Below, in pieces: positions 583 through 53,874 of a stretch of DNA of 64,000 nucleotides. The first letter of the stretch is position 1. The number at the start of each line of letters is the position of its first letter. The stretch lies in the IMG/VR virus record IMGVR_UViG_3300021400_000932. One strand, 5' to 3'. The notes under the pieces were generated by a model. The model saw nothing but the letters and a program-made list of their open reading frames with translations, searched no databases and was not told where the DNA came from. The translations under genes and the position numbers were made by a program. This DNA comes from a virus (Duplodnaviria; Heunggongvirae; Uroviricota; Caudoviricetes).

Positions 583-588
583 CGTATG

Positions 589-674: not shown

Positions 675-679
675 ACATA

Positions 680-1496: not shown

Positions 1497-1593
1497 TGGT
1501 GGCGAGGGCAGGATTCGAACCTACGTTACCTGAGCTACATATCGTACTACTGTACTAAGCAATCAGTGTCTTAGACCACTTGACCAACCCGCC
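1497..1593 (-). tRNA. tRNA-like gene (type II-like, 97 nt) with non-canonical anticodon arm; identity undetermined, possibly pseudo-tRNA
   Basis: Reverse complement GGCGGGTTGGTCAAGTGG...GTAGGTTCGAATCCTGC CCTCGCC A CCA has good acceptor, D and T arms and an encoded CCA. No 5-bp anticodon stem with a 7-nt loop and U33/R37 can be drawn in the CTGATTGCTTAGTACAG region. Confidence 0.45.
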
Positions 1594-1710
1594 ATTTATA
1601 AATCAATAGGCTGTTCCTCTAACCCCATTTAACTACAGCACTTTGGACGCCTCGAAGTGTCAAACTTCTTCCATTATGCGATTTTCGTAGCACCCATCAA
1701 TTTTAATTTG

Positions 1711-2016
1711 TTATAAGAAATTCCTGCTCATAAAAAATTTCATAAAGCGTTCTTTAACCCTTCGGAACTTGTAAGAAATTCCCTTTGTAGAAATTACTTC
1801 GATTCCCATATTCCCATCCGGAAGTTTTGTGTTTCGAAATTCAAGAGAATCAATAGCATATCCGTATTCTGGTTCATCTATTGAGGTTTCTCCGGTTATA
1901 TGGAATCTCGATGAACCATCCTCATTAACCTTCGTGAATTCCAGCTCAATGAAGTATTCCTCATAGGAGTTATAAAGCCAGATGATGTCGCCTTGTTTTA
2001 ATTCTGATACTTTCAT
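1711..2016 (-). CDS. hypothetical protein
   Basis: 101-aa ORF in co-directional minus-strand array; no recognisable motif. Confidence 0.45.
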   Translation of the reverse strand: MKVSELKQGDIIWLYNSYEEYFIELEFTKVNEDGSSRFHITGETSIDEPEYGYAIDSLEFRNTKLPDGNMGIEVISTKGISYKFRRVKERFMKFFMSRNFL

Positions 2017-2025
2017 ATTGACCCC

Positions 2026-2241
2026 TTAATTATATTCAGTATCACAAAATTTGCAGATATGTCCATGTAATGGAGCTCCACAATTCTTGCAATTTGTGGG
2101 ATGATGTGGATGTTCATTTTCTATTGTGATTGGAACATCAGCTATTTGAGAATACCCATCTGCATTCCGGAGATATAAACCATCATTGCAACAACAGTAC
2201 AGTTGCGCCGATACAAACGACCAATCATTCATAACTTCCAC
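2026..2241 (-). CDS. zinc-ribbon protein (paralog of C-terminus of 15813..16151)
   Basis: C-terminal CKNCGAPLHGHICKFCDTEYN is nearly identical to CKNCGAPLHSNRCEFCDTEYD in ORF 15813..16151. Confidence 0.6.
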   Translation of the reverse strand: MEVMNDWSFVSAQLYCCCNDGLYLRNADGYSQIADVPITIENEHPHHPTNCKNCGAPLHGHICKFCDTEYN

Positions 2242-2252
2242 CTCACATCAAA

Positions 2253-2528
2253 TCAGGACATATGGTCTTCAACAAAAGATACCAAATCTGCCACTGTTCT
2301 GCATTCGCAAAATTCTGACAAAGCGGGTTCATTAATAGAGAATTTGAACATATCCTCTATATCAATAGCCAAGTCCACAGCATCAAGGGAATCAAGACCG
2401 AGGTCCCCACGAAGTTCGGTATCTAAAATTATCTCAGATTTATCTGTGTCTGATTGCTGAGATACCATGTTTCGTACAATTTCAAATACTTCTGACATTT
2501 GAACCTCCATGGCATATAACGATTTCAT
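2253..2528 (-). CDS. acpP: acyl carrier protein homolog (probable start at internal Met MSEVFEI)
   Basis: Phosphopantetheine-attachment motif LGLDSLDAVDL (DSL serine) in a small acidic ~80-aa protein, matching the bacterial ACP LGADSLD motif. Confidence 0.7.
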   Translation of the reverse strand: MKSLYAMEVQMSEVFEIVRNMVSQQSDTDKSEIILDTELRGDLGLDSLDAVDLAIDIEDMFKFSINEPALSEFCECRTVADLVSFVEDHMS

Positions 2529-2538
2529 TATACATATT

Positions 2539-2615
2539 TGGAGCAGATAAGGGGACTCGAACCCCCACTACCAACTTGGAAGGATGGTGTGCTAACCGTT
2601 GAACACTATATCTGC
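2539..2615 (-). tRNA. tRNA-Gly (anticodon TCC)
   Basis: Reverse complement GCAGATA...CCTTCCAAG anticodon loop (as in bacterial tRNA-Gly UCC), T-loop GGTTCGAGTCC, discriminator U, CCA encoded. Confidence 0.8.
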
Positions 2616-2634
2616 ATATTTGTAACTAAAAAAC

Positions 2635-3039
2635 TTAGTAGTTAAAAATTTGTCCATCTTCCGGTAGACCGGCAAATTCTGGACCCAGTTCATATGGGAA
2701 ACCATCGACATAAATGATATCGGCATCTTCATCATATGGATAAGTCTTGTTCACAGCATCACGAATAGAAGAATTGCTCTTGGCAATTTCCCGCGACCGC
2801 TTTTCAGTTGCGAAACTACGTGCAGCATTGACTAGCGAAAACATATCCGCATTAGAATAATATTTGCATTCGCAGTCCTTTTCATGATACGGAATCTTCT
2901 TCACACCAGAAAATACTAAAGTATTGATTCCACCTAATATATTCTGAATACTTGTTTCATCTGCATCGAATGCATGAAGAATATTATCAGAAAGTGCTAC
3001 GAAGATTGTATCACGCATCAACTTCATCCCTTTCATCAT
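2635..3039 (-). CDS. hypothetical protein
   Basis: 134-aa ORF between tRNA-Gly and tRNA-Leu; no clear motif. Confidence 0.45.
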   Translation of the reverse strand: MMKGMKLMRDTIFVALSDNILHAFDADETSIQNILGGINTLVFSGVKKIPYHEKDCECKYYSNADMFSLVNAARSFATEKRSREIAKSNSSIRDAVNKTYPYDEDADIIYVDGFPYELGPEFAGLPEDGQIFNY

Positions 3040-3189
3040 ATTCCTTCCGAACTAAATCATATCTATCTGCGGCTGACAACCTGTACCAATCATCTTTAAT
3101 ATCCAGAAAAGAAAAAACGGTAAGATTGTGTTCGGACAACAAATCGCAAAATTGTTCTTTATCCATATTTAACCTCAGAAATAAAAGTG

Positions 3190-3270
3190 TGGTGCGCCTG
3201 ACAGGACTCGAACCTGCACCCTTGCGGACTAGAGCCTAAATCTAGCGTGTATGCTTTCCACCACAGGCGC
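3190..3270 (-). tRNA. tRNA-Leu (anticodon TAG), type II
   Basis: Acceptor GCGCCTG/CAGGCGC, anticodon stem-loop CTAGA-TTTAGGC-TCTAG, variable arm, T-arm GCAGGTTCGAGTCCTGT, CCA encoded; D-loop lacks the GG dinucleotide. Confidence 0.7.
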
Positions 3271-3279
3271 ACATCTTAT

Positions 3280-3477
3280 TTATCCAATATCTCTATCATA
3301 AGTAGTTTTATCACAGTTCGGACATTTCATATAAGTGAAAAATTCTACGCACGGCGGAGAAATGTGGAGCTCAGCATCACTTCTATTCGCATACCACTCA
3401 CACCCACAATGTTTGCAAGTAAAATGAAACTCACCGGTCTTAGACTTGGTTACATCCCCCGATTTGACGATATTCAT
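3280..3477 (-). CDS. small zinc-ribbon protein
   Basis: CKHCGC...C...CPNC; two CxxC pairs in 65 aa. Confidence 0.5.
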   Translation of the reverse strand: MNIVKSGDVTKSKTGEFHFTCKHCGCEWYANRSDAELHISPPCVEFFTYMKCPNCDKTTYDRDIG

Positions 3478-3980
3478 AACAACTAACCTCGCTGTTCACC
3501 TAAGCATAAAGTTGTGCCGGATATTCCCCGCTCTATTCTCCGACTCCACCCCAATACACGCATTTGCCCATATCTGTGTCTTTACTGTCGTTTTTGTCGG
3601 ACAGGGTGGTATGTTTGTCAACTCAATACTTAGGATAGTCCCAAATTGCGTAGGCTTTATTGGCTTTGCATATTGGGCAGTATTTCGTACCATTTCACAT
3701 AGCACTTATCAGAGAGATTACTGTAGTTCCTCTCCATAAGATTTCAGCGCAGCACCTGCCCCTCCAGATGCCGAGTTTTATCCGTAACAAAACCAGACCT
3801 ATGTATTGAATTGACATTCTCTATCCACCACGCCGTACGCACATCATATAGCCCTCGGCGTAGCAGTCTGTGACCCCTCAAAGAGACGTGAGGTGCTTTC
3901 TTTGGCGGATTAGCTCGCCCCCGCCGGTCAGACATCGCCCTTTCATGCTTTGCCATCCTATAGTAAACCGACTTAGGTTT

Positions 3981-4056
3981 TGGTGTGCCGAGAGGGATTC
4001 GAACCCACGACCTGCGGATTAAAAGTCCGCTACTCTTCCGGCTGAGTTATCGGCAC
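3981..4056 (-). tRNA. tRNA-Lys (anticodon TTT)
   Basis: Acceptor GTGCCGA/TCGGCAC, anticodon stem-loop GCGGA-CTTTTAA-TCCGC, T-loop GGTTCGAATCC, CCA encoded. Confidence 0.85.
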
Positions 4057-4313
4057 ATAGATGTGAGGTTGGTAGTCATCCTTTTACTGCTGAGGGGGAC
4101 CCCACAACTCCCGTTTTCGAATGGGTCCGCACGGAGATTCCAAAAGGTGCGGATTTCGAAGTAGCTACTCTCCAGCTACAAGAAGAACGGTTTTACCAAA
4201 GGACTCACAACGCGATGTGAAAATCCTACCGACCGATAAGGGGATGATTTCTCGTTTACCATCCTAACGCCATCTTTTCGGCGACTAACCCAGGGCAGGT
4301 ATATGTTTCCCTT

Positions 4314-4400
4314 TGGTGCAAGTGAAGGGAATTGAACCCTTAATCCCAACAGGGCATGGGATTTTAAGTCCCACTTGTATGCCAGTTCCAACACACTTGC
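4314..4400 (-). tRNA. tRNA-Leu (anticodon TAA), type II
   Basis: Acceptor GCAAGTG/CACTTGC, anticodon TGGGA-CTTAAAA-TCCCA, variable arm CCC-TGTT-GGG, T-arm AAGGGTTCAATTCCCTT, CCA encoded. Confidence 0.85.
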
Positions 4401-7024: not shown

Positions 7025-8530
7025 ATGGAAAGATATGGATGTGTTGCCCCTGGAAATAACATAGCAGCTAGAAAGAAAGCGAAAGCTACTATGCAAGAAC
7101 GATTTGGTGTTGACTATGCTATGCAATCGGAAACTGTCAGAAAGAAATCTGTTGCCACCAATATAAAAAAGTATGGTGTCGAAAACCCCCAACAAAATGA
7201 AACAATCAAACAAAAAACCGCAGAAACAAATCAGGAACGGTATGGGGGCACCGGTTTTCAATCAGAAGAGTTGCTAAATAAGTATAAAGATACAATGATT
7301 GATATATATGGTGTTACTTCCCCCATTCAAAACCAACAGATTCGACAGGATATTATGAATACTATGCAAGACAGACATGGCGCTTCATGGTTCTCTCAGA
7401 GTGAAGAATATAAAGATAAATGTCATACTACTTCATTATCTAAATATGGTGCGGAACACTGGATGCAAACAGATGAGTGTAAGCAGAAATGCAAAGATAC
7501 TTGGCTGCGGAATTATGGCGTTGATAATCCATCGAAATCTCCGCTAGTAATCGCCAAGATAAAGCAGACATTTATTGATAAGTATGGGACAGATGGACTA
7601 TTGAATGTAGCTGAAATCCGAGAGAAGATACAGAAGACTTGCATTGAAAGATATGGTGTTCCCTATGGGGTATTGACACCACAAGCACGAAAACACAATG
7701 GTGCTATATCGAAGCAAAACAAACAAGTAATGAAATTATTAGATGATGCCGGTTTGAGCTATCAGTCAGAATTCAATCTTGAAAATAAATCATTTGACAT
7801 CAAAATTTTATATTCCAATATACTTATTGAGATTGACCCATCATACACACATTCAATAGAACTAACTCACTGGAATACCTCTGTTTCAGATACATACCAT
7901 ATAGAAAAGACTATGTTGGCAAACAAACATGGATATCAATGTTACCATATCTTCGATTGGGACGATAGGAAAAAATTTGTCAAATCTCTAACTAAGAAAA
8001 AAGATATAGAAACAGACCAATATTATATATCTGAAGTAGATGAATTGACTGCAACTGAATTTTATTATAAATATTCCATCTATATGCCGGATACCAAGTA
8101 TGCAATCCATATTGGAATATTCAACAAGCGGAATAATGCACTACTGCAAGTATCGTCATTCAGATTCATAGATATTTCTAACTGTCGGTGGCTGCTTTGT
8201 GCTAACAGCATCAAATTCCAAATTAATGTTATAGATGGACTGCATAATATCATAGACCACTTTGTTAAATACTATGACCCTGCTGAAATTGTCGGATTAT
8301 GTGATATAGCAAAATCAAATGGGATGATGTTTGAATCAATAGGGTTCAAAGAACTTTCAGAAGAACCACCACGTTTGATTTGGAGTCGATATCGGTCAGC
8401 AATTTCTAATGACAATGTAAAAAGTCAAACCAAATTGAATGATGAACAAATATACTCTATGATGATAAACAATAAATATCTGCCTGTATATGACTGTGGA
8501 TACAAAGTATATTCATTGAAACTCCGGTAA
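7025..8530 (+). CDS. repeat-containing putative site-specific/homing endonuclease: tandem ~30-aa K..(K/R)YGV.NP.Q repeats plus C-terminal PD-(D/E)xK-like (DUF559/Vsr-type) domain; N-terminal Zn-finger module probably starts at 6841
   Basis: At least eight repeats (QERFGVDYAMQSE, KKYGVENPQQNE, QERYGGTGFQSEE, IDIYGVTSP, SKYGAEHWMQ, RNYGVDNPSKSP, DKYGTDGLLN, ERYGVPYGV). The C-terminal FDIKILYSNILIEIDPSYTH resembles a DUF559 nuclease core. The in-frame upstream sequence 6842-7024 encodes CKFCGKEF...CPVCGKEY and has no start codon. Confidence 0.75.
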   Translation: MERYGCVAPGNNIAARKKAKATMQERFGVDYAMQSETVRKKSVATNIKKYGVENPQQNETIKQKTAETNQERYGGTGFQSEELLNKYKDTMIDIYGVTSPIQNQQIRQDIMNTMQDRHGASWFSQSEEYKDKCHTTSLSKYGAEHWMQTDECKQKCKDTWLRNYGVDNPSKSPLVIAKIKQTFIDKYGTDGLLNVAEIREKIQKTCIERYGVPYGVLTPQARKHNGAISKQNKQVMKLLDDAGLSYQSEFNLENKSFDIKILYSNILIEIDPSYTHSIELTHWNTSVSDTYHIEKTMLANKHGYQCYHIFDWDDRKKFVKSLTKKKDIETDQYYISEVDELTATEFYYKYSIYMPDTKYAIHIGIFNKRNNALLQVSSFRFIDISNCRWLLCANSIKFQINVIDGLHNIIDHFVKYYDPAEIVGLCDIAKSNGMMFESIGFKELSEEPPRLIWSRYRSAISNDNVKSQTKLNDEQIYSMMINNKYLPVYDCGYKVYSLKLR

Positions 8531-21116: not shown

Positions 21117-21300
21117 CCACACGACTAAAGTCGTGGGATTCTTGCTTCAACGACTACGGCGAGCGTTTTACTCAAAGAGTTCAGCTCGACTTACACAATC
21201 TCCACAAGCTAGATTAAAGAGTTCCCGTGTGCCCCACGGTGCTCTGTGTATTAATAGAGGTTAAGCTATCATAGCCAACCCTTTAGTTAATATATTCATA
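21117..21300 (-). ncRNA. putative TnpB omega/right-end guide RNA (3' end of tnpB plus right end)
   Basis: Structured ~145-nt right-end segment downstream of the tnpB stop, ending in the terminal hairpin; by analogy to characterised IS605 TnpB systems. Confidence 0.4.
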
Positions 21301-22355
21301 GCGGCATTGACATCTCTGTCGTGATACTCTCCGCACTCGGGGCAAGTCCACTTTCGTATAGCTAAATTCTTAACTAATGGATTTTTATATCCGCACTTGT
21401 TACACAACTGACTGCTCGGATAGGTAGTAGGCACTCTCTGTACTGTCCTGCCGTACCAGGCAGCTTTGTATTCAAGCATTGTAAAAAACTTAGACCACGA
21501 AGCGGAGGATATACTTTTAGCCAGCTTGTGATTTTTGAGCATATTTTTGATTTTCAAGTCTTCTACACAGATTACTTGGTTTTCGTTAATCAGTGTAGTT
21601 GAAAGCTTTTGCAAAAAATCATTTCGCTGATTAGATACCTTCTCGTGGACTTTAGCTACTCTTAGTCGTTGCTTATCTCTGTTATGGGAGTCAACCTTCT
21701 TTCTGGAAAGTTTTCTTTGTTCTCTGCGTAATTTTCTTTGTGTTCGTTCTAACCTTTTGTGATTAGGTACAGAATTACCGTTACTGTCGGAATAGAAATC
21801 TTTTATGCCGACATCTATACCAATAACGGAATCTATTCTGTCTAAAGGTTGAGGTTCAAAGTCAATGTTAAGAACAGCAAAATACTTTCCTGTAGGTGTT
21901 CTCTCTACAGTAACATTATTAATATGACCTATATTCATTGACTGTTTGACTTTAATATAGCCAAGCTTTGGTAACTTTAGTTTATTGCCGTCAATGCGAA
22001 TATTATTACCTTGATTAAGAGTTCTGTAACTCTGGCGATGGTTATGTTTACTTTTGAAACAAGGATATCTGCCTAACTTCTTAAAGAAGTTTTGATACGC
22101 TCGGTCTAAATCCCTGAGAGATTGTTGCAGAGCAATACTATCAACTTCCTTAAGAAAGGAAAAGTCATCTTGCATTTTCATAGAGGTGAGCATAGCAGAA
22201 GTAGCGGTATAGTTAGCTTTATTACCTAACTTGTATTGTTCAATTCTGTATGCTAAACCTTTGTTGTAAATGAATCGAACACAACCAAGAGTGCGGTTTA
22301 TTATGTTTTGCTGTTCCCGATTGGGATAGATACGAAACTTTACACCTTTGTTCAT
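21261..22355 (-). CDS. tnpB: TnpB (IS605 OrfB-family RNA-guided nuclease)
   Basis: 364 aa; RuvC-like motifs ([10 protein letters not shown]) and C-terminal zinc finger CNKCG...CPECG. Confidence 0.85.
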
Positions 22356-25434: not shown

Positions 25435-27027
25435 TTATGTATTTGAAATGTCGGATACCTGTGTTGGGATATCTGTAGTAGGAACGTCATTCACATGAAC
25501 CGCTACATTATCACCGCCAAGTGCCTTAGCACCGAACAGACCGACAAGCAGGGACTTGAGGTCAAATCCCATAGATTCGCTCAGACCATCATTAACCTGA
25601 GTCAGTCCGTTGATAATCTGTCCGGTAAACTGACCTGCATCACCACCAAAAATCTTGATGGAATCAACAGAACTGAATCCACCTGCGATAGCCGAAGCAA
25701 TTTCCGGCAGCTTGTCAAAGTAGGCAACTGCCGCATCGAGAACCATCTGTTTCTGTGCAGCTTCGCCATACAGAGCCATAGCCTCAGCCTTTTCTTTCAA
25801 ACCTTCAGCCTCAGCAATCAGCTTAGCCTTTGCGGCCTCAGCCTCTGCATTACCTTTGGCGCGGATAGCATCAGCTTCTGCTAAACCAGCAGCACGAATA
25901 GCCTCTGCATCCTGTTCCTTTGCGAAACGTTCAGCCTCCGCAGATGCCTTTTTAGCCGATGCACTCTGCTGTGCCTCATACATCTGAGCATCTGCATCCT
26001 GCTGGCGCTTGTACTTCTCAGCTTCTGCATTACGCTGTTCTGTGTAAAGTTCAGCATCAGCTTCCTGCTGTGCAGCAAACTTATCAGCTTCTGCTTTCTT
26101 CTTGATTTCGGCTTCAAGTCTACGCTCAGTAATCTTTACCTCACGTTCTTCAAGTTCAATCTGCTTTTCCTGACGAGCAAGGTTCGCATCAGCTTCTGCA
26201 ATTTCCTTGGACTTGCGCTGATTCTCAGCCTCAATGCCCTTGGCCGCCTCTGCCTTTGCAATCTTGATGTCCTGCTGTTCCTTGAGTTCAGCCTGCTTGA
26301 TAGCAAGCGCATTCTCTTTAATAGCAATTTCAGTCTGGGCCGCAATCTCAGCATCATTAGCTTGCTTCTGTGCATCCGCCTGAGCAATAGCTACCTCTGC
26401 CCTTGCGCGTGCTGCAGCAATAGAGGCATCCTTTTTAATCTGTTCAGTATTCTCAATACCGAGATTGTCAATAACCCCATTCTGGTCAGAGAAGTTCTGA
26501 ATATTAAAAGTAGTGAGCTTAAGACCCATATCTCGAAGATTCGGACTGACATTCTCAGTAATCTTCTCAGCAAGTACTTTCTTATCTCCGCGAATTAAAT
26601 CAGTCAGCGGAATCTGAGAAATGATTTCACGAATGTTACCCTCTAAAATCGGGGTAATTTCAACCCGAATTTCTTCTGTAGTACGACCTAGGAATTTAGA
26701 AGCCGCAATCTTCAGAACCTCTGGGTCTTGGTCAATAGACATATTGGCTACAGCATCGACACGAATATTGATTGCATCCTGTGTCGGAATCTCACTCTTA
26801 GAAACAAAGTCAACCTGAATGTTTTCGAGTGACATAAAGTCCACTCTCTGAAAAAATGGGATTACAAATTTCGCCCTACCGATATAAGTCTTTGCACCTC
26901 TCGGACCAGTAACAACCATAGCTCGGTTGGGTGGGCATTTTCGATAGCACACCTTAAAGATAAGGACCAACAGAAAAAGAACTACAATGCCTGCGATAAC
27001 TGGGGTAAGAATTTGCCATGGAACCAT
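25435..27027 (-). CDS. flotillin-like SPFH/band-7 protein (FloT/YqiK-like)
   Basis: N-terminal transmembrane helix, SPFH core (NRAMVVTGPRGAKTYIGRAKFVIPFFQRVDFMSLENIQVDF), long Ala/Glu-rich coiled coil (AEAE repeats), C-terminal domain; 530 aa. Confidence 0.8.
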   Translation of the reverse strand: MVPWQILTPVIAGIVVLFLLVLIFKVCYRKCPPNRAMVVTGPRGAKTYIGRAKFVIPFFQRVDFMSLENIQVDFVSKSEIPTQDAINIRVDAVANMSIDQDPEVLKIAASKFLGRTTEEIRVEITPILEGNIREIISQIPLTDLIRGDKKVLAEKITENVSPNLRDMGLKLTTFNIQNFSDQNGVIDNLGIENTEQIKKDASIAAARARAEVAIAQADAQKQANDAEIAAQTEIAIKENALAIKQAELKEQQDIKIAKAEAAKGIEAENQRKSKEIAEADANLARQEKQIELEEREVKITERRLEAEIKKKAEADKFAAQQEADAELYTEQRNAEAEKYKRQQDADAQMYEAQQSASAKKASAEAERFAKEQDAEAIRAAGLAEADAIRAKGNAEAEAAKAKLIAEAEGLKEKAEAMALYGEAAQKQMVLDAAVAYFDKLPEIASAIAGGFSSVDSIKIFGGDAGQFTGQIINGLTQVNDGLSESMGFDLKSLLVGLFGAKALGGDNVAVHVNDVPTTDIPTQVSDISNT

Positions 27028-38174: not shown

Positions 38175-39689
38175 TTATAGTGTAGTTTCTTCAGTTTCCG
38201 AAGAAACATCCAGAGCTGTATCGGATATAGTTGCACTAGTCTTTGGCATACACTCACCAAGAATCTCTGACAATGCTATCTTAAACACCTCTGGCTTATC
38301 TACTCTAAGACTTTTCAGCAAATCAACAAGTGTGGAAGATTGCGTAATAGCCATATCGCGCTTATCAAACTGCAATGCACTCATTTCAGTAAGAATCGGC
38401 TGCATATGCAATTCGAACTTGTTTTCGTATCGAGAATGACCCTTTGCCACAAAATACTTGTTTAATGCATCAGTCCATCCGGCCATATATGCGGTTTCTA
38501 TTCGTTGCAAGGAGTTTGCATACAAAGCAGACCGCTGCGACATTACAGCACCGGCACCGCCAAGACCTTCAGCAGAAGAGAAGTTCAATGCCTCTTTCGG
38601 AATTCCCAGAACAGACAATTTCTTATCCTGATAGTAATTCAATAACTTATCAGCATTCTCAGAATCATCTTTCATGTTAAGGTCAGTAACAGATACAGCA
38701 TCTTGTCCGTTGACCTTTGGTATGTAAATCAAATTATTTGGCGACTGTGGGTTCAAGAAACTCTGGGTGTCGCCAGTATCTGTATTAAGAGAAAGCTGTT
38801 GCTGTATTGCATCCTTTATTTGTTGTAAGTTATCTCGGATTTCTTCTTCCTCTGTAGTGGTTCCGCAATCGACATTTATAAATCTTACAACTTTTACCAG
38901 AGATGACAAAATTGATGCATCTTCAAGCAGGTTCAGTATTTGTGTAGGTTGCAATGCCGCTTCTAACAATGGGTCTGCAAACTGAATATCATATACTGCG
39001 TCATTTCCATCTTTATCTCTTACAGCTATTTGATAATCACCAAGTAAACCACCGAGAGCAAAGTGAATAATGGACTGTTCAGGATAAATTACAGAACTTG
39101 ATGGCAAATAAGAAGTTTTTCCTTTTTGTTCTTCTGTAGGAGAAAGAATAAATCCTTTTCTTTCTCCTTGTTGCCAAACATGTATTACATCATCAGCAGG
39201 AATTTTTGTAGATGGTATGATATCATAACCATTGTCCGGAACGGTATTTGTATCAAGTGCAACACCAACATTCATATGTCGTGTTGACAAATCCTTATAC
39301 AAATCCGTTGTCGGTAAATACAAATTTCCTGTTGTAGCTAATTCAAGTATGTGGTCTCTTGCATATGCATTAATATTCCATTTACGGAATAATGCGTTTA
39401 TCAGTTCTGCCGCATCTTTCGGACCATCCGGAACCGTAGTAGCCCAAATTATCTGTCCGGATGAATTTGGAATTGTGGCGTCGGTCGCATAATAGGATAA
39501 AGCGGTTGCTACCTGAGAGTCCTTTGCCAAAGCTCGCATCTTATCAATAGTTGTCTTAATATCTGCGAGGTCTGAATCACTTTTTATGTCAGATAGGCGA
39601 TAAAAAGAACCACCAACGACACTTCTTAAAAATGACTGCGGCTTTGGACGCCGAACTACGGTCATAATCTTATCAAAAAATTTTGCCAT
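38175..39689 (-). CDS. putative portal protein
   Basis: 504-aa protein in the terminase-proximal position; CCTTATATAAT motif upstream; no diagnostic motif verified. Confidence 0.4.
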   Translation of the reverse strand: MAKFFDKIMTVVRRPKPQSFLRSVVGGSFYRLSDIKSDSDLADIKTTIDKMRALAKDSQVATALSYYATDATIPNSSGQIIWATTVPDGPKDAAELINALFRKWNINAYARDHILELATTGNLYLPTTDLYKDLSTRHMNVGVALDTNTVPDNGYDIIPSTKIPADDVIHVWQQGERKGFILSPTEEQKGKTSYLPSSSVIYPEQSIIHFALGGLLGDYQIAVRDKDGNDAVYDIQFADPLLEAALQPTQILNLLEDASILSSLVKVVRFINVDCGTTTEEEEIRDNLQQIKDAIQQQLSLNTDTGDTQSFLNPQSPNNLIYIPKVNGQDAVSVTDLNMKDDSENADKLLNYYQDKKLSVLGIPKEALNFSSAEGLGGAGAVMSQRSALYANSLQRIETAYMAGWTDALNKYFVAKGHSRYENKFELHMQPILTEMSALQFDKRDMAITQSSTLVDLLKSLRVDKPEVFKIALSEILGECMPKTSATISDTALDVSSETEETTL

Positions 39690-39705: not shown

Positions 39706-41265
39706 TTATATAAGGTGTAACTTCTCAAGGTCATTATCTATCTGAAAACTGCTGAAAAATTCATCTTCTACATAGACAGGGATGTTGTAGCTTTGAGCTA
39801 AGTCGATAATTTGTTTTGGTTCTCCCCTAAAATGACCAACAACCAGACAACTGCAATCTGAAGTTAATTCCAAAGTCACATCGGCACTATAGCTGTTAAG
39901 GATAGAAGTAATTTCTTCCAACGAACCATGTTGGAATTTTCCTGCAATGCAGATTTTCTTGTTAATAAATATGGGGTCACCCTTAAACTTCTTTTGAACT
40001 TCGACAATCTCAATATTTTGATTGTGGATGATGCTATCAAATGTTTCAGCATGTCTTCCATCAGAAAACCAGTCAACAAGATTCTTTGCAAACATAGGAT
40101 TCAGTCTTAGTTCAGAATATGCTTTATCTGGATTATTGATATAATAATGTACCGCAGTTTGTGATTTTGCTTGTCTAACGAACTGAGCTACATTGTCAAT
40201 ATTTCCCATAGTAACAGATACAGGGAGAATACTAAACAACAAGTTGGTGAGCGTGGTCTTAATTCCCCTCTCTGCATACTGAGGAAGATTGAGCACACTT
40301 TGCAGAGAACTAATTTCACCGGAATTTGCGGCTTCGATATATTCTTCATAAGGAAGTTGGTCTAAACCGAAACCAACAAGCATCTTAACAACATTCTTGT
40401 AATTGCGAGATGGACAATCAGAATCAGCGCAGATTGTAGTGCCATCATTAATGGTATACTGCTTACCGCAAATAGGACAAGTGAACACATTCGACAATCT
40501 ACCGTACTCCAGATGCGGAGAAATCGAATACACAACCTCATTATCTTCAAGCATCACATAAGTTCCGACCGAAGCATCATAAGCCACAGCATCGGAATAA
40601 GGTATGATATATTTATCCTCATTTCCAACTATGTTCCAATGCACATATCCAGATTCATCTATAAGCGGACTGGCTGATTTTACCGTATCTGCGACAAGTC
40701 CACGAGATATAAAACTGGTGGATGCCCCAATCGAAACATTGTAACCCACAGCAATCGGCAATGCCTTGTTAGTGGATTGACCTATCGTATCAATGTATGC
40801 ATCCAGTTGAGATGGAACAGAATTAGCCGTAACACTAATACCGCCGATAAAACTAAAACCATAAGACCTTAACTTACTTGCCAACATCAATGTGGCCACA
40901 TTCAAATTATTATAATGTGCTCCACCATAAGCATAAAACTTACACTTAGTCGGCCATTTTGTAATAAATTTGATTATGCTATCGTAATAACACTCCGGAA
41001 CATCACCTGTGCAAGACGAATACCTAAAATCTGGGTCTGTGATAACAATAACACCATCAACCCTGGATATTTTAGATATGGTGGAAATTCTTTGAGAGAT
41101 TACTTTTGCAGAACACAAATCTGTTACTACAGAAAATGGCAATTCCTCATTAGTTGGATTTGCAACTATGCTTGTTACAAATCCTTGTTGGGCATAGTTG
41201 ACAGAACATAAAAGTCCTACAGGAATTGGTTGAACATACTGACCCGATGAAAAAGTTGTTGACAT
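39706..41265 (-). CDS. protein with NAD-ligase-like C-terminal module (C4 Zn-finger + HhH + BRCT) and uncharacterised N-terminal domain
   Basis: CPICGKQYTINDGTTICADSDCPSRN (LigA-type Zn finger), HhH-like VVKMLVGFGLDQLP...ERGIKTTLTNLLFSI, and BRCT-like KKICIAGKFQHGSLEEITSILNSYSADVTLELTSDCSCLVVGHFRGEPKQIIDLAQSYNIPVYVEDEF. No KxDG adenylation motif. Confidence 0.55.
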   Translation of the reverse strand: MSTTFSSGQYVQPIPVGLLCSVNYAQQGFVTSIVANPTNEELPFSVVTDLCSAKVISQRISTISKISRVDGVIVITDPDFRYSSCTGDVPECYYDSIIKFITKWPTKCKFYAYGGAHYNNLNVATLMLASKLRSYGFSFIGGISVTANSVPSQLDAYIDTIGQSTNKALPIAVGYNVSIGASTSFISRGLVADTVKSASPLIDESGYVHWNIVGNEDKYIIPYSDAVAYDASVGTYVMLEDNEVVYSISPHLEYGRLSNVFTCPICGKQYTINDGTTICADSDCPSRNYKNVVKMLVGFGLDQLPYEEYIEAANSGEISSLQSVLNLPQYAERGIKTTLTNLLFSILPVSVTMGNIDNVAQFVRQAKSQTAVHYYINNPDKAYSELRLNPMFAKNLVDWFSDGRHAETFDSIIHNQNIEIVEVQKKFKGDPIFINKKICIAGKFQHGSLEEITSILNSYSADVTLELTSDCSCLVVGHFRGEPKQIIDLAQSYNIPVYVEDEFFSSFQIDNDLEKLHLI

Positions 41266-41303
41266 TGTTAAAATCCTCCCTTAACAGTTTTAAGTGGTAG
41301 TTT

Positions 41304-43625
41304 TTATCTTCTTATATATGGTCCGAACACCGATGGCATTCGGCTTTTTGGTGTTGATGGTCGTCCATTTACACTCGAAATTACACTTGCCATATTGTTG
41401 ATAGATGGCTTAATTTGGTCTTGATGTTGGATATGTGTCCAGCAAGCACCGCAAAGAGCATCAGAAAGGTCCTTTGAACCATTCTGTGGGTGGTCTATGC
41501 GATTATTCAATCTTTGTAATTTGACAAGTTCATCCTCTTGTTTTTGATTCTTAATGAGCTCCAATCTCTGGTCTTGCAATAAATTACGCAAACCAATGTA
41601 TGGGTCTTCCGATACATCGACAGAAATCTTTTCAACTGCAAATCCTTGCTGTGCTAAAGTTTCTCGCACGTAGGATGATTGAAATTGGTCCGTAGATATT
41701 ATGTTTACATTAAATCCGGTTCTACGAAGCCAAATCATAAAGTTGATTACTTTTTGGAATGACATCCTATCACCGGATGGAGCTTCAATACCAACCTGGA
41801 ATACCTGTCGATAGAATGGTAACATCACTCGTCGTTCGGTATCCAAATCAAGTACATTCTTCATACCATCTTGAACTACTCCGCTAATACCTATTCTATC
41901 GGATACCTCAGCAAAGTCTATGTGGATATTCATGGGTAATGATTTAATGTGCTTATCCACTACTTCAGGATGACAATGATTTTCGATAGTATCATTATCC
42001 CGTATGCCGATGACCAATATATCTTCAAAGAATGGATTTTTCCTTGCTGAAGTAACATTGGGTGTGATTGAATCCTGTGTAATGAATCCCATAGCACCGG
42101 TCACAGATATGCCAGCTATATCTCTTAGAGCTATATCATAATCGGCAAGGAAGTTAGTTTTGAAATCTTTGGGAACTGCAAGAACTCGATACCCAGATTT
42201 TCGGTATGCTTCCAAATGCTGTTCATCCTCATTTTCTTTCGGTATGACAAAACCTCGTTTATATCTGTCACCGACAGTAATATAGAACTTTTCCGGACTG
42301 AACATCTCTTTCGGAAGAACTTCCCACTGTGGTTTATCTACAAGATACATATTAGAGTTTCCGGCATTTAACTGAGTTTCAATATGTTCTGATAGATAAT
42401 CGGAATCTGTGTTCTTAGACGATGAAGAAATCAACTTACCATACACTTCACCACCAAGTTTGAATGTACCGGTGATACGAGCATGGACGGTGTTATACAG
42501 ATTTTTCATATGCTGTTTAGCTATATTGATATCCTTAACACCGGAACGACTGAAGTTGACCTCATCCATAAGACAGTTATGTGAAACCAAATTGGAATTA
42601 GCACAAAGTATGAAATTATGATAAGGCTGTACATTTATCACATCATACACCGGAATGGGGATATCATAAATCTTCTTGGACATCGCCACTATGGTAGGAT
42701 TTGCACCGTTAACTGAAAGCAATTCGGCACCAATGGTTAAATTACCAATCGGTCTATACTCGCCATCCGATTTCAACATCAAGTGGTCCGAAGTGCCCTC
42801 TATAATTGAACCATCTGATAAATGTAATTTAATAGTGGATGTAACATATCGAGTACATCTAATTTCAGCCTCTGTAGGTATGCAATCTTCACCAGAATAC
42901 TGATAAATGGTAACTGTGTGATTGGAACAGTATTCCAATGTCTTTACTCCTTCAGAAGTAAGTATCTTTGTATCTCCCACAAGACAGGCCCAAACCTGCA
43001 TTCCGAGTACATGCGCTGAATCGGATGCCGGTATTATATCAATCTTTCCACCCTCTGGTAGATAGACATAATTGCTTGCACTGTTGCTAAATTTACCGTG
43101 GTCATTAAACCAGGGACTTTCCCTCAGAGTTGTTTGAAATTCTCGGAATGCAACACCAGCAGCCAAATCCTTTGTCAAATTCGCAAAGGCGATAGTAAAT
43201 TTGGATACCTCTTTCTTCTTAAAATAAGAATGCGGGTCCTTATATATCATCAGCCGGTACAGCATATATGCCACAATGGAAACCGCAGTAGATGACTTTC
43301 CTATACGAGTTGCACCCGACAATATTATTTCAAAAAACTTGTTTCCATTATTAAATATATCGCTGAGAGTGTGTTTCCAAAATGGATAAACAGACTCACC
43401 TTGATTGTTGGTATTTCCTAAATATCTCGGATTGCATAAAAATTCATCTATAGATACAGGAACTTCCTTGAAATCAGAAAGCCATAATTGTTCCAGTGTC
43501 TGAGAGTATCCCTTATCCACCATCTCTTGAAGAATAATTTTGAGGGTGTTCTGTTCCATCTTAGAACAACTTGCATACACAGTTTGTATCCGATGAAGCA
43601 CATCCTCATAATCAATCTCCTTCAT
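41304..43625 (-). CDS. terminase large subunit containing a mini-intein
   Basis: Walker A ILSGATRIGKSSTAVS. The intein runs CLVGDTKIL ... VSHN, followed by C+1 and LMDEVNF (Walker B region). A C-terminal nuclease region follows. Confidence 0.8.
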   Translation of the reverse strand: MKEIDYEDVLHRIQTVYASCSKMEQNTLKIILQEMVDKGYSQTLEQLWLSDFKEVPVSIDEFLCNPRYLGNTNNQGESVYPFWKHTLSDIFNNGNKFFEIILSGATRIGKSSTAVSIVAYMLYRLMIYKDPHSYFKKKEVSKFTIAFANLTKDLAAGVAFREFQTTLRESPWFNDHGKFSNSASNYVYLPEGGKIDIIPASDSAHVLGMQVWACLVGDTKILTSEGVKTLEYCSNHTVTIYQYSGEDCIPTEAEIRCTRYVTSTIKLHLSDGSIIEGTSDHLMLKSDGEYRPIGNLTIGAELLSVNGANPTIVAMSKKIYDIPIPVYDVINVQPYHNFILCANSNLVSHNCLMDEVNFSRSGVKDINIAKQHMKNLYNTVHARITGTFKLGGEVYGKLISSSSKNTDSDYLSEHIETQLNAGNSNMYLVDKPQWEVLPKEMFSPEKFYITVGDRYKRGFVIPKENEDEQHLEAYRKSGYRVLAVPKDFKTNFLADYDIALRDIAGISVTGAMGFITQDSITPNVTSARKNPFFEDILVIGIRDNDTIENHCHPEVVDKHIKSLPMNIHIDFAEVSDRIGISGVVQDGMKNVLDLDTERRVMLPFYRQVFQVGIEAPSGDRMSFQKVINFMIWLRRTGFNVNIISTDQFQSSYVRETLAQQGFAVEKISVDVSEDPYIGLRNLLQDQRLELIKNQKQEDELVKLQRLNNRIDHPQNGSKDLSDALCGACWTHIQHQDQIKPSINNMASVISSVNGRPSTPKSRMPSVFGPYIRR
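42576..42986 (-). other. mini-intein (137 aa, residues 214-350 of the terminase)
   Basis: Block A CLVGDTKIL, block B GTSDH (TxxH), terminal blocks VYDVINVQPYHNFILCANSNLVSHN followed by Cys+1; no homing-endonuclease domain. Confidence 0.8.
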
Positions 43626-46924: not shown

Positions 46925-47707
46925 TTATTCTGTATATTTACTTTCAAATAGAAACTTTGCTAATGTTGCATGCGTAGCTATTTTTGTTGCAGATAAATTA
47001 GATATACATTCGATTGCCGCTTGCTTGATATGTTCGGATTTTGTCATAGACACAATATATCTCATTACAAGGTCTATTGGAGTTTCAGACTTATCTGGGT
47101 AATGTCCGAGTGTCCACATCATATTTGATATCGAACCAGAGAATGACAGTATAGAAGATAAAGATTTGAAATACTCTTGTTGTTCGCTTGTGAGATTCAA
47201 TATAGTATTCGCATCTTTAAATGTTCTCGCACAACCCCACAACTTACTTCTTTTTGTGGCTAAATACCTATCAGGATTCAACTGTTCTGCATAAGACAGT
47301 ATATCAGAAACAATAGGAGTTGTGACAGTAGTAACCGAGCATCTACTTATGATGGTGTCAGGAATATTGAGAATGTTTCTACATGTTACAATGACATATG
47401 CTGTAGGTATTGGTTCTTCAAGGAATTTAAGCAATGTATAAGCTGCGGATGCTACACCCAAATCGAGATTTTCTATGCACAGCACCATAGGCGATTTTAA
47501 TGCTATGCAGGAATCAACAGATTGCCTAATGTCAGATACTTTCGGCTGAACAGAAATGAAATCCGAAACATTAAGCATCTTAGCATACTGTTTTGCTAAA
47601 TATGTCTTTCCGCATCCTTCCGGACCCTCAATGATAATGCTGTGTGTATTGTTGTTCGCAAATTGAGTCAATTCATCAACTGCGGATTTTTGATTCTTTA
47701 CTACCAT
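46925..47707 (-). CDS. AAA+ clamp-loader subunit (DNA pol III delta-prime/RFC-like)
   Basis: P-loop IIIEGPEGCGKTYLAKQY, Walker B CIENLDL, SRC-type motif TIISRCS. Confidence 0.6.
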   Translation of the reverse strand: MVVKNQKSAVDELTQFANNNTHSIIIEGPEGCGKTYLAKQYAKMLNVSDFISVQPKVSDIRQSVDSCIALKSPMVLCIENLDLGVASAAYTLLKFLEEPIPTAYVIVTCRNILNIPDTIISRCSVTTVTTPIVSDILSYAEQLNPDRYLATKRSKLWGCARTFKDANTILNLTSEQQEYFKSLSSILSFSGSISNMMWTLGHYPDKSETPIDLVMRYIVSMTKSEHIKQAAIECISNLSATKIATHATLAKFLFESKYTE

Positions 47708-48627
47708 ATGTCCATCTCCCCCACCGATGGGATATTGTTAAACTGCAGTAATCCGGCAAGATATGTCAAACAATTCTGAGGTTCGACAGAAAGCGACCGT
47801 ATCAATGAAAGCTGATTGTATGCTTGCATAAATAAATTATAAATATCCTGCCGTTTCCACAGATTGGCATATTCCGATAGATTAGATTCTACTCTTTTCC
47901 TATCGAATAACTTATCAAGTTCAACCGCAACAGATAAGAAATCATAGATTACTGAGTCATACGATTCTGTGTACTCAGAAATGCACTTATTGACATTTGC
48001 AAACTTTCTCGATGCTATGGCAATCTGCATCTCCTTGTTTCCGGAATCTTCAACATACCCGAACAATGTACAGATATCATCATCAGACATATCATCTATG
48101 ATTGCCGGATTGCAGGCAGACATGCCGACACAAATATTCCTCGCATGTCCATAGTTCCTGCAAATCTTTGTAGCAATAGACAGTAAATGATTACTACAGT
48201 TCGGAAACTCGGATTTAAGATATTTCATAATCATATTGGCCTGTATCGGTTCAATGAATGATGAATTATCCGGCAAATACTTTTCAATCTTGGAAAAATA
48301 CTTTGTTTCATACAAGCAAACAACCGTTCCGGATATTTTCAAATTGATTATTTCCTTTGCTAAGTCAGCAGAAATATTTGAACCGAAATCTTCATCATAT
48401 CGAACAACATACAGAGCCGAACCGAGAGGAATAAGTTGCTTTATCTTTGATGATGCGATAATTTCACTTACAGTATTACATTCTATTTTCTGTCCATAAT
48501 ACTTAGTGAGTTCATCAATGTATCTTGCCTTTATCCCATATTCGGAACCACCAAGCACATAAAAATTGCGAGGTGTATGATTTAGTATCTCCAACCCTAA
48601 CTGTTGTATTGATAACATTTTTGACAC
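47701..48627 (-). CDS. probable clamp-loader delta-like subunit
   Basis: 308-aa ORF between two clamp-loader AAA+ genes; assignment by position. Confidence 0.35.
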   Translation of the reverse strand: MSKMLSIQQLGLEILNHTPRNFYVLGGSEYGIKARYIDELTKYYGQKIECNTVSEIIASSKIKQLIPLGSALYVVRYDEDFGSNISADLAKEIINLKISGTVVCLYETKYFSKIEKYLPDNSSFIEPIQANMIMKYLKSEFPNCSNHLLSIATKICRNYGHARNICVGMSACNPAIIDDMSDDDICTLFGYVEDSGNKEMQIAIASRKFANVNKCISEYTESYDSVIYDFLSVAVELDKLFDRKRVESNLSEYANLWKRQDIYNLFMQAYNQLSLIRSLSVEPQNCLTYLAGLLQFNNIPSVGEMDIW

Positions 48628-50900: not shown

Positions 50901-51923
50901 TTACTTCCTCTTTGAATTACAGAGGTATGTAATAGCTACCTCTTGCAGATAATTTGTTGTTTTGAGTTCGTGGTTCATCTTAATAAGAACATTAGCCAAA
51001 CGCAAACACAAAGTAGCATGCGCACTACCATACTTAGAAATTTTATCCTGGTAGTATGCCGGTATCATAGTCTTGTTAATATCTTGAAGAAAGATATATT
51101 TTACAATCTGACACACAAATGAATGAAATCCCTCAAACCACCGAACAAAATTTGTTCCCGAATCATATATGTCATTGATAACTCCGATTACCGCTGCATC
51201 ATCTTTCTTTGCGACACCATTCAACAATACGAAGTAATCATCATAGTTAGGCAAATCAAGTGCAACCGAAAGATTCTCTAAGGTGATTTCAGATGAATAT
51301 GCTAAAGCTCTATCCAACAACTGAATGGAAGCTCGCATACCACCTTTACCCAACTTAGCAATATAACGCAGCGCATTTTCATCATAATGAATGTTTTTAC
51401 CCTCTGCTATTTCGCTATCACAGATATATTTCAGTCTGTTAGTAATTCCATCCAAACTAATTTTAGATAATCTGAATGTCTGCACTCTCGACAAAATTGT
51501 TTCCGGTATCTTCTCAGGGTTGGTGGTACAGAAAATAAATACCGATTTAGCCGGACTTTCTTCCAACACCTTTAGCGCAGCCTGCCAAGCCGCCTTGGAA
51601 AGAGCATGTACTTCATCAAGAATAAACACTTTCCATTTTGTTCCGACAGGATATTGTTGAGCCTGCACTACTATGTTTCGCATATCCTCTACACCGCTAT
51701 TCGATGCAGCATCCAGTTCTATCGGTTCACCCTTACCATCATTAAGGATATTACCAATAACACGAGCAATAGTAGTCTTGCCGATACCGGCGGCACCAAC
51801 AAACAAGAAGTTCCTATTTGTCAAAGTAGGCTGACTACAAATGTTTTTAACTATATCTATAACAGCCGCTTGTTCTGTAATATCATCGAAAGATTTTGGT
51901 CGATATTTTGTTGCAAGATTCAT
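50901..51923 (-). CDS. clamp loader ATPase (DnaX gamma/tau N-terminal-like / RFC large-type)
   Basis: FLFVGAAGIGKTTIARVIG, ILDEVHALS, ILSRVQTF sensor motif. Confidence 0.7.
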   Translation of the reverse strand: MNLATKYRPKSFDDITEQAAVIDIVKNICSQPTLTNRNFLFVGAAGIGKTTIARVIGNILNDGKGEPIELDAASNSGVEDMRNIVVQAQQYPVGTKWKVFILDEVHALSKAAWQAALKVLEESPAKSVFIFCTTNPEKIPETILSRVQTFRLSKISLDGITNRLKYICDSEIAEGKNIHYDENALRYIAKLGKGGMRASIQLLDRALAYSSEITLENLSVALDLPNYDDYFVLLNGVAKKDDAAVIGVINDIYDSGTNFVRWFEGFHSFVCQIVKYIFLQDINKTMIPAYYQDKISKYGSAHATLCLRLANVLIKMNHELKTTNYLQEVAITYLCNSKRK

Positions 51924-51968
51924 TTACTCGCACCCCCACACCTTATATAAACGATTCTTGTTGGCAAA

Positions 51969-52793
51969 TTACCACTCTTTACACTTCTTAAAATATGGAC
52001 ATCTTGAAGAACTGCACCACACATCACCGCTCGGTAGTTTTGGCGGAGCGATACAAGCATCAGCTAGTTTCTGAACCTCTGAGAACATATTCCATGTTTC
52101 AATCATCTGCGGGTAAGATACCTCTATCTCAAAACACTTGATATTGCCATACTGTCTATCCTGATATACAAACAATACCTTGTGTACTTTTAGAACAGTA
52201 GCATAACCAATAGCTTGTTCAACATGCTGAGGTTTTGGTTCAGTAAGAGAGTCAAAACTACTGTAATCGGAAGTTTTAATCTCGATTAGATAGTATTCAC
52301 CATTAATTTTAATAAGACCATCGCAAGAAAATCTAATGGGTGGACTAACTATCTCTACCTGCGTCTCAAATTCTGTTTTATTTACTGTGTATTCATAGTC
52401 TGGATTCAATTCAGATAAATAATCCTCAACATCTATCCAATTATCACCGTACATCTCAGATAGATTTGATTGGATTATCTTATGACAAGCTGTTCCTACA
52501 TCTGCAGTAAAATTTAGTGTTAAATCCGGTGCTTCATCTTTGTCCGGTAAAACACCTCTGAGCCTAAACCAAGAGATGCGCCTACAGCGAATGTAGCTCA
52601 TGGCGAAAGTCCTGTGTTTAGGCTCTAGGCTTTTAGCACGTATTTTGTTTGTTACAAAATTATTATAATCAGATAAAAATTTGTAGCTTGTCTGTGAATT
52701 GAATGAAACTATGCGATTTAATCCTGCCGGTCTAAACCCCATAGTCCACCCCTTAGTTGCTAAAGGGTGCCAGCACAACGGACATAGTATCAT
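51969..52793 (-). CDS. PD-(D/E)xK exonuclease with C-terminal Cys cluster (Cas4/RecB-nuclease-like)
   Basis: DGLIKINGEYYLIEIKTSD (D...ExK) and C-terminal CSSSRCPYFKKC plus N-terminal CPLC cysteines. Confidence 0.55.
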   Translation of the reverse strand: MILCPLCWHPLATKGWTMGFRPAGLNRIVSFNSQTSYKFLSDYNNFVTNKIRAKSLEPKHRTFAMSYIRCRRISWFRLRGVLPDKDEAPDLTLNFTADVGTACHKIIQSNLSEMYGDNWIDVEDYLSELNPDYEYTVNKTEFETQVEIVSPPIRFSCDGLIKINGEYYLIEIKTSDYSSFDSLTEPKPQHVEQAIGYATVLKVHKVLFVYQDRQYGNIKCFEIEVSYPQMIETWNMFSEVQKLADACIAPPKLPSGDVWCSSSRCPYFKKCKEW

Positions 52794-53874
52794 CGCTGAA
52801 TACTACTCCATCTACCACCGAACCGGTCTCTTCATCGAACTTCGGAGCAATTCTAACAGATGCATCGAAACGAGAAAGAACCTGCCTTAAATCACCAGAC
52901 TTAAATGTGCAACTCCAAGGTGCATCCACTTCGGTCTCTGTCGGAATTTCCTTCTTACCCTTGTTTTCCTCAATAATGATGCACTTATCGGCAATAGTCA
53001 TAGACACAGGACTATCGGAAGATGCGGCCAAGAGAGAAGTCTGTGACAAGAACTTGCGAAGTTCTGCTGTAGTGACAAGAACACCATCATTGGACGGGGT
53101 AAGTGCATAGAAGATTACCTCATGATGATATTCACCGACACCCTCATCTGCTTCATACTCAGGGGTAAATTCCGTAAGATAGTCATAACCATCGGTTGAT
53201 AAGTGAATAAGATATGAGCTCGGCAACTTGATTAGTTCCGCACCTTCAGGAAGAGCGGCGAACAGATTAACAATAGTCGAAAGCAACAGACAGGTATCTG
53301 CCAATGCACCTTTCTTGGAATGGGTGAAGATACCTTTATCCACGTCACCAACAAGAACATCACCGTCAGCACCAACCCAAACTCGTGTATAGATTGGATG
53401 CTTCAACTCAGTAGCAAGCGCAAATAGCTGGTGGTCTCTTACAAACTTCCAACTCTCCGTATCAATGGCGGTCGAAACATACTGCTGTGTAAAGGTTTTA
53501 GGATTAGCAGGAACGCCGAAAGAAGAATCTGCATCATCAGACATCTGAGCCAGCTTAAATTTCGACTTTCCGGAATGCATAATTACTCCGCCCTGCACAA
53601 ACTCAATGGTGGTGACATCCGCATCGAAAGTGGTTACAAGGTTGCGGAATGTAATGCTGTCCAAGATGACAGATACTGGACCAACCTCATCGCCAGAACC
53701 ATGCAGGGTCAGTTCTGTCACAATTCTCGATGCTTCGATATTGATTTTCAATGCGGATTCAGTTGCGGTCAGCTTTACAACTCGGCTGCGACTTACAAAC
53801 TGAGAGATATTACTTTTGATAATACCTAACTCGATGGCTGTCTTCAAAGGCTTTGTACTACATGTGAATTTCAT
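52753..53874 (-). CDS. dnaN: DNA polymerase sliding clamp (beta-clamp/DnaN-like)
   Basis: 373 aa; N-terminal MKFTCSTKPLKTAIELG resembles the DnaN start; located between clamp loader and polymerase. Confidence 0.6.
   Translation of the reverse strand: MKFTCSTKPLKTAIELGIIKSNISQFVSRSRVVKLTATESALKINIEASRIVTELTLHGSGDEVGPVSVILDSITFRNLVTTFDADVTTIEFVQGGVIMHSGKSKFKLAQMSDDADSSFGVPANPKTFTQQYVSTAIDTESWKFVRDHQLFALATELKHPIYTRVWVGADGDVLVGDVDKGIFTHSKKGALADTCLLLSTIVNLFAALPEGAELIKLPSSYLIHLSTDGYDYLTEFTPEYEADEGVGEYHHEVIFYALTPSNDGVLVTTAELRKFLSQTSLLAASSDSPVSMTIADKCIIIEENKGKKEIPTETEVDAPWSCTFKSGDLRQVLSRFDASVRIAPKFDEETGSVVDGVVFSDDTMSVVLAPFSN

Follow-up and report, generated by a model that had tools for sequence, protein, structure and literature searches.

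Here we describe a gene of a tailed phage that lies in a 64,000-nucleotide stretch of a Caudoviricetes genome (IMG/VR record IMGVR_UViG_3300021400_000932; the whole stretch is called the window below), on the minus strand between the genes for the large terminase (TerL) and the portal. Its 519-amino-acid (aa) product plus the stop codon make up the open reading frame (ORF) 39706..41265 (-). Only five codons separate the ATG from the upstream in-frame stop, leaving no room for a missed N-terminal extension. The protein is collinear with NAD-dependent DNA ligase (LigA), and we consider it probable, from its alignment and predicted fold, that it is a pseudo-enzyme: a LigA paralogue that has kept the order nucleotidyltransferase (NTase), OB fold, zinc finger, helix-hairpin-helix (HhH) and BRCT, has lost domain Ia and catalysis, and would serve as a non-enzymatic scaffold. 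We refer to it as pseudo-LigA. The gene and its parts are as follows.

39706..41265 (-): whole coding sequence of pseudo-LigA, an almost certainly inactivated NAD-dependent-ligase paralogue (ORF list, global hhalign alignment and AlphaFold2 model)
41275..41280 (-): strong Shine-Dalgarno sequence GGGAGG, 9 nucleotides (nt) 5' of the ATG (read in the sequence)
40699..41265 (-): aa 1-189, domain with a predicted nucleotidyltransferase (adenylation) fold and none of the catalytic motifs (AlphaFold2 model, hhalign)
40510..40698 (-): aa 190-252, predicted compact OB-fold domain (secondary structure of the model, hhalign)
40402..40509 (-): aa 253-288, C4 zinc finger with C263, C266, C279 and C284 (cysteines present in 96 of 96 representatives)
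40021..40401 (-): aa 289-415, helical region, a homologue of the HhH domain of LigA (hhalign)
39748..39975 (-): aa 431-506, BRCT domain (Pfam BRCT)
39709..39747 (-): aa 507-519, conserved C-terminal tail Y/F-x-I-D-x-D-L... (I509 in 94, D510 in 91 and D512 in 96 of 96 representatives)

Besides domain Ia, about 30 residues are missing from the start of the NTase domain, and the NTase and OB parts together are compacted to 252 aa, compared with about 335 aa in LigA.

Single-sequence searches with Pfam, PHROGs and NCBIfam recognized the C-terminal half alone. Pfam BRCT matched aa 431-506 with an E value of 3.3e-6, over the gathering score, and was also matched by 11 of 12 close homologues. PHROG 3869 ('NAD-dependent DNA ligase') aligned through its positions 392-654 of 656 to aa 260-508 (E 5.4e-10), and the LigA model TIGR00575 matched with E 5e-9; a single-sequence phmmer search against PDB sequences gave no match. 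For profile comparisons we used two alignments, A2, with 96 representatives of the protein family to which pseudo-LigA belongs, and A3, with seven LigA sequences (E. coli LigA and six phage LigAs). The family profile matched the LigA PDB chains 1dgs and 2owo at the zinc finger and BRCT domain (E 1e-6 and 8e-6). When aligned to A3 with hhalign, the family matched locally from aa 17-508 to LigA 118-670 (probability 98.9%, E 1.7e-17) and globally from aa 1-509 to LigA 98-671 (probability 99.7%, E 2.6e-24). The N-terminal 255 aa by themselves aligned to LigA 118-384 (E 8e-5), and the NTase region by itself was matched with E 2e-5. No Pfam Nlig-Ia match, which would mark the NAD+-binding domain Ia, was found in the window protein, and the global alignment begins at LigA residue 98.

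Structural modelling agreed with the alignment. An AlphaFold2 model built from 12 sequences was poor (predicted local distance difference test (pLDDT) 63), and the model built from A2 reached a pLDDT of 92.4 and a predicted template-modelling score (pTM) of 0.79. The order of its secondary-structure elements follows the hhalign alignment, with the NTase domain at 1-189 and then the OB domain at 190-252. Structure searches with the N-terminal half returned LigA adenylation domains as best matches, followed by ATP-dependent DNA ligases, RNA ligases and capping enzymes, which together make up the covalent nucleotidyltransferase superfamily; poxvirus processivity factors were also among the matches (rank 8 in one search, ranks 29-35 with Foldseek against BFVD). 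The model predicts for residues 1-189 the nucleotidyltransferase fold of a ligase and for residues 190-252 an OB fold, and the two follow LigA collinearly. An earlier note on this DNA had described LigA-like zinc finger, HhH and BRCT similarity at residues ~270-519, behind an N-terminus without a recognizable fold, and had proposed an alignment to LigA to delimit the shared segment. The C-terminal similarity is real, but the homologous segment starts at residue 1 rather than at ~270, and the N-terminus has two folds that can be assigned.

A list of functional residues of E. coli LigA, which we take to be those of the LigA mutational literature, was mapped onto the family. Within A3, K115, D117, G118, R136, E173, R200, D285, K314, G335, G455, T606, G607 and K648 are invariant, and the phage LigAs differ from one another at K290, R333, T334, R379, the zinc cysteines and G489/G521/G553. 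At the position of the motif I lysine (K115), the 96 representatives carry V (69), I (17), A (4), L (4), S (1) or M (1) and never K, so that the motif reads [V/I]14-P15-x-G17 in place of K-x-D-G. The D117 position is V/I/L, the E173 position is V in 82 of 96, the R200 position is E/D and the D285 position is S/A/T; those of R136 and K290 are variable, and the equivalent of K314 falls inside a deletion. The OB-domain DNA contacts R333, T334 and R379 are not retained, nor is K648 of the BRCT domain, and none of the hairpin glycines of the four HhH G-h-G motifs (G455, G489, G521, G553) is kept, although the helical domain is still homologous and collinear. Because every residue of adenylyl transfer and most residues that grip nicked DNA are lost, pseudo-LigA is almost certainly unable to seal DNA. 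The sequence 'SRVDG' at aa 67-71 (for which P0005 carries 'SKVDG') was considered as a shifted motif I and rejected: its strand aligns with motif III (EVRGE), and a lysine occurs there in only 4 of 96 representatives. The earlier note was thus right that a KxDG motif is missing and that the protein is related to LigA without an adenylation-competent active site. It had also held that a complete but divergent nucleotidyltransferase domain would indicate an ordinary ligase; such a domain is present, but its lysine nucleophile and other catalytic residues are gone.

Other positions have been kept. The structural glycines G118, G335 and G607 are found in all 96 representatives (the first two as G17 and G206), as are C263, C266, C279 and C284, which align to LigA C408, C411, C426 and C432. 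The BRCT T-G motif has its threonine in 87 and its glycine in 96 of 96 members, and the basic residues nearby are R434 (89 of 96) and K436 (69 of 96); in the sub-clade of the window protein T441 is replaced by A441 and R434 by I434. The best-conserved parts of the family are this domain and the acidic C-terminal tail (I509, D510 and D512 each in at least 91 of 96), and judged from its conservation the tail is possibly a protein-interaction peptide. Of the polar residues within the N-terminal 260 aa, only K32, R129 and D203 reach 60% conservation across members, together with D/E at 225 and 240 and K/R at position 2. The median net charge is negative or zero in every domain except the zinc finger, and is -6 in the HhH-like domain. 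The NTase-like domain is not decaying: 11 close relatives share 81% identity in it, as much as in the BRCT domain and more than in the OB, zinc-finger and HhH parts.

The family is large. A word-indexed search retrieved 13 relatives, 12 at 76% identity or more (one of them a 293-aa fragment) and one at 31%. When the alignment of these relatives was run with HMMER exhaustively against 1.84 billion cluster representatives, it gave 331 matches, 235 of them with E<1e-30, which sets the family size at no fewer than 235 clusters at 50% identity; among the 150 matches listed of these 235, all but two were about 500-550 aa long and matched end to end. Against GenBank phages, tblastn gave no match with the window protein at E<=1e-5 or with the typical member P0030 at E<=1e-3, and megablast of the 10 kb round the pseudo-LigA gene also found none. 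Relative to the GenBank phage collection, the family is known from metagenomes only. The longest metagenome contigs that carry members are ~193 kb, and the metagenome sources label the product 'hypothetical protein'. Foldseek against BFVD identified two members in UniProt, A0A8S5UC97, a 'BRCT domain-containing protein' of Siphoviridae sp. ctgN495 (template-modelling score (TM) 0.75), and A0A8S5UEV8 of ctX5W26, whose name, 'DNA ligase', is probably a mis-annotation.

Canonical ligase genes and domain Ia were sought elsewhere in these genomes. Hidden Markov models of LigA Ia, NTase and full-length LigA run over six-frame ORFs found no canonical ligase or Nlig-Ia in the 64-kb window, a Pfam scan of 20 larger window ORFs found no ligase domain, and ~7 kb past the window end (L016) held no ligase. 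Neither the window nor any related locus showed a LigA NTase gene separate from pseudo-LigA. Virus ctgN495 encodes both the family member A0A8S5UC97 and a canonical 638-aa 'DNA ligase (NAD(+))', A0A8S5UCE9, a pair that fits a paralogue with a different job. A solo Nlig-Ia of 177 aa (PF22745, E 1.5e-25) is encoded in one related locus (L004, 19209..19742 (+)), at a distance of 7.6 kb downstream from the family member; neither the window nor the other loci showed one, so that it is not a conserved partner of pseudo-LigA. Domain Ia supplied in trans was considered and rejected, since the solo domain is confined to that locus and the catalytic residues are missing anyway.

The earlier note had placed the gene between the large terminase and the portal, and family matches on both flanks bear this out.

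41304..43625 (-): TerL, 773 aa, upstream neighbour, with a 137-aa mini-intein (PHROG 17415; alignment with intein-less orthologues)
38175..39689 (-): T4 gp20-type portal, downstream neighbour, starting 16 nt past the pseudo-LigA stop (Pfam Portal_T4, E 1.1e-13; PHROG 213)

The gaps that flank the pseudo-LigA gene are 38 nt on the TerL side and 16 nt on the portal side, and no terminator-like site was seen in the intergenic gaps between TerL, pseudo-LigA and portal. The order TerL, pseudo-LigA, portal is found in the window and in four related loci (L002, L004, L011 and L012), and in L013 the gene adjoins the portal; the family members in these relatives are only about 25-31% identical. Besides TerL, pseudo-LigA and portal, the same strand of the window carries DnaB, primase, a DNA polymerase of family A, a beta-clamp-like protein, subunits of the clamp loader, UvsX, the putative small terminase (TerS), four to five small proteins and the tail sheath. 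TerS is without a family match and was named from its position and its overlap with the TerL start. The window is from a myovirus with a T4-like portal, whose nearest cultured phages by portal are at 23-25% identity. In one of these, the distant relative Bacillus phage HSE3, TerL lies directly beside the portal, which suggests that pseudo-LigA is a clade-specific acquisition between the two. The host is probably a member of the Firmicutes, as suggested by polymerase best matches in Clostridium, Streptococcus and Bacillus phages and by strong ribosome-binding sites.

Several other features of the window were recorded. The TerL mini-intein (42576..42986 (-); 137 aa, TerL aa 214-350, CLVGDTKIL...LVSHN, followed by Cys) sits directly before a conserved MDE motif, the presumed Walker B, and three orthologues have no such insertion; in L011 the 1186-aa TerL orthologue has, at a TerL site, a larger intein that includes an HNH domain. 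At 46925..48627 and 50901..53874 (-), three AAA+ genes resemble clamp loaders and a further gene (52753..53874 (-); DNA_pol3_beta_3, E 0.009) weakly resembles a beta-clamp; they accompany a family-A polymerase, and the replisome is of bacterial rather than T4 type, in a phage with a T4-type portal. A TnpB/IS605 OrfB-type protein (21261..22355 (-)) has HTH_OrfB_IS605, OrfB_IS605 and Cas12f1-like TNB domains. A 530-aa SPFH/Band-7 and flotillin-like protein (25435..27027 (-)), unusual cargo for a phage, has a hydrophobic segment at its N-terminus and a long coiled region rich in Ala, Glu and Lys. Eight tRNA genes (Asn, Asp, three Leu, two Lys and Gly) are clustered at 175..4400 (-), and a DUF7487 protein (7025..8530 (+), E 4e-41) is one of few sizeable plus-strand ORFs; its homologues in L011 and L012 are encoded downstream from the sheath gene, the L011 one with a weak Mom-like match.

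We propose that pseudo-LigA acts non-enzymatically, as a scaffold or adaptor, through interaction surfaces that its invariant zinc finger, BRCT domain and conserved tail would provide; the conservation of the last two suggests protein-protein adaptor activity. It would most likely be needed at a late stage of infection, for packaging DNA or assembling heads, and the tight TerL, pseudo-LigA, portal block suggests late co-expression and a role of this kind. Such reuse would parallel that of poxvirus A20, an inactivated LigA derivative that serves as a replisome scaffold. We read the gene as a core gene of a large clade of uncultured ~190 kb myoviruses, kept there by purifying selection and transcribed throughout the clade in one block with TerL and portal. 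A more specific idea, which we advance only tentatively, is that pseudo-LigA belongs physically to the packaging machinery or serves it as a cofactor, in the terminase-portal complex or the prohead, where it could be an adaptor that couples the motor to DNA structure or to the replication/repair apparatus.

Some observations weigh against this proposal. In all loci examined, gene order is conserved over 10 kb on each side, so that adjacency to TerL and portal counts for little as a sign of a functional link, and the role in packaging or assembly is one that we infer from gene position only. A replication module (PolA, the beta-clamp-like protein, clamp loaders and UvsX) lies a few kb upstream on the same strand. 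A lysine might conceivably reach the pocket from elsewhere; K32 is conserved in 72% of the family, but the window protein has Ser there. In this phage a canonical ligase was sought over 64 kb plus ~7 kb of a genome of about 193 kb.

In a rival reading, pseudo-LigA would be to the phage what A20 is to poxviruses, an adaptor of the replisome or clamp that has no catalytic role and tethers replication or repair proteins, for example by its tail to the beta-clamp, and its adjacency to TerL would be incidental. The A20 precedent and the structural matches to poxvirus processivity factors speak for it, as does the set of genes just upstream on the same strand (PolA, beta-clamp-like, three clamp-loader-like proteins, UvsX, DnaB and primase), and the conserved tail resembles clamp-binding peptides, short peptides of this kind being used by clamp-binding proteins. 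We nevertheless regard this role as doubtful: about ten small ORFs, TerS and TerL separate the gene from the replication genes, it is embedded between TerL and portal with gaps of 16-38 nt, and a phage with its own clamp and loader has no obvious need of an A20-like factor. It is unlikely, too, that pseudo-LigA is a catalytically dead sensor or protector of DNA nicks or ends in packaging or ejection, as the earlier note had suggested for DNA ends, or a recruiter of a real ligase; in such a role it would encircle nicks or bind ends with a 5'-phosphate and mark or shield them. All LigA DNA-binding domains are kept as folds, most members conserve the BRCT T-G motif with R434 (89 of 96) and K436 (69 of 96), and the terminase gene adjoins, but residue conservation does not support DNA binding: the contacts R333, T334, R379, G455, G489, G521, G553 and K648 are not retained, the domains other than the zinc finger are negative or neutral (-6 in the HhH-like domain), and the window sub-clade has Ala at T441 and Ile at R434.

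An active but unconventional ligase, with a non-canonical nucleophile or with a separate Ia domain or other subunit as in the split ligases of T5/PR1-type phages, is highly improbable. Split phage LigAs do exist (PDB 9hu3, 'subunit A/B' annotations) and L004 has its solo Nlig-Ia, but that domain is lacking in the window and the other loci, the motif I lysine is missing from all 96 representatives together with six more LigA-invariant catalytic residues, the polar residues conserved in at least 60% of N-termini are only K32, R129 and D203, and the relative ctgN495 has a canonical LigA as well. We give next to no credence to the novel domain fusion of the earlier note, the C-terminal DNA-binding half of LigA joined to an unrelated novel or structural N-terminal domain. 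Single-sequence searches do catch only the C-terminal half, but the N-terminal half aligns collinearly to the NTase and OB domains of LigA, does so with independent significance and finds LigA adenylation domains as its best structural matches; pseudo-LigA is not a fusion with a foreign domain, and profile-profile alignment and structure matches refute that origin.

The non-enzymatic scaffold that we favour would have several consequences. Labels such as 'DNA ligase', 'BRCT domain-containing protein' and 'hypothetical' would be corrected for a family that almost certainly does not ligate. The family would offer a clean and widespread example of enzyme-to-scaffold exaptation in bacteriophages. 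To our knowledge, the documented cases so far come mainly from poxviruses, among which A20 is the one derived from LigA. A literature search found no phage pseudo-ligase and no BRCT protein between terminase and portal; an inactivated LigA scaffold would be new for phages, and the full-length architecture and position are unusual. As a protein that has kept the LigA folds and shed the catalytic and canonical DNA-contact residues, pseudo-LigA is a good system for studying how a ligase scaffold may be reused, its fixed position between TerL and portal makes for a testable hypothesis on DNA-packaging accessory factors, and the gene can be used as a marker for the uncultured ~190 kb phage clade. 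If it were indeed part of the packaging machinery, phages would have their first example of a DNA-repair enzyme whose scaffold was co-opted for virion assembly, and the gene would count as a core gene by which a major clade of uncultured phages is defined.

Among known systems, the closest is LigA itself (EC 6.5.1.2; E. coli LigA PDB 2owo/4glx; PHROG 3869), with the same domain order and folds from NTase to BRCT. Pseudo-LigA is collinear with it over LigA 98-671 and keeps the C4 zinc finger and G118, G335 and G607, but it lacks domain Ia, the first ~30 NTase residues, K115, D117, R136, E173, R200, D285, K314, the OB DNA-contact arginines and the HhH hairpin glycines, and it sits in a terminase-portal block. 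The split NAD-ligases of T5/PR1-like phages (subunits A/B, PDB 9hu3) are likewise a phage-specific LigA rearrangement; compared by annotation rather than by motifs, they are DNA ligases (NAD+), with one structure bound to nicked DNA. T5-like subunit-A matches span E. coli LigA 16-388, motif I region included, and subunit B has zinc finger, HhH and BRCT only, whereas pseudo-LigA has NTase and OB domains in the same chain with the catalytic motifs gone. A class of solo Nlig-Ia proteins in phages was described by Iyer et al. 2022 (PMC9503650). These are also LigA modules living apart, but they represent the very domain that pseudo-LigA is missing.

Poxvirus A20 has been described as an inactivated NAD-ligase derivative, with NTase and OB domains, that works as a non-catalytic scaffold (bioRxiv 10.1101/2022.11.22.517515). 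A20 (OPG148; MPXV A22, PDB 8wpf_B) and pseudo-LigA have in common LigA-derived NTase and OB domains with a disrupted active site; in contrast to A20, pseudo-LigA keeps all C-terminal LigA domains and adjoins packaging genes. Compared by length with the 519-aa pseudo-LigA, the A20 entries in BFVD are shorter, at 426-435 aa, with one of 609. A20 has D4- and E9-binding ends. Identity between pseudo-LigA and the poxvirus proteins is ~9%, which, together with the different architecture, points to an independent event, and judged from these sequences an independent origin of pseudo-LigA and A20 is the more likely.

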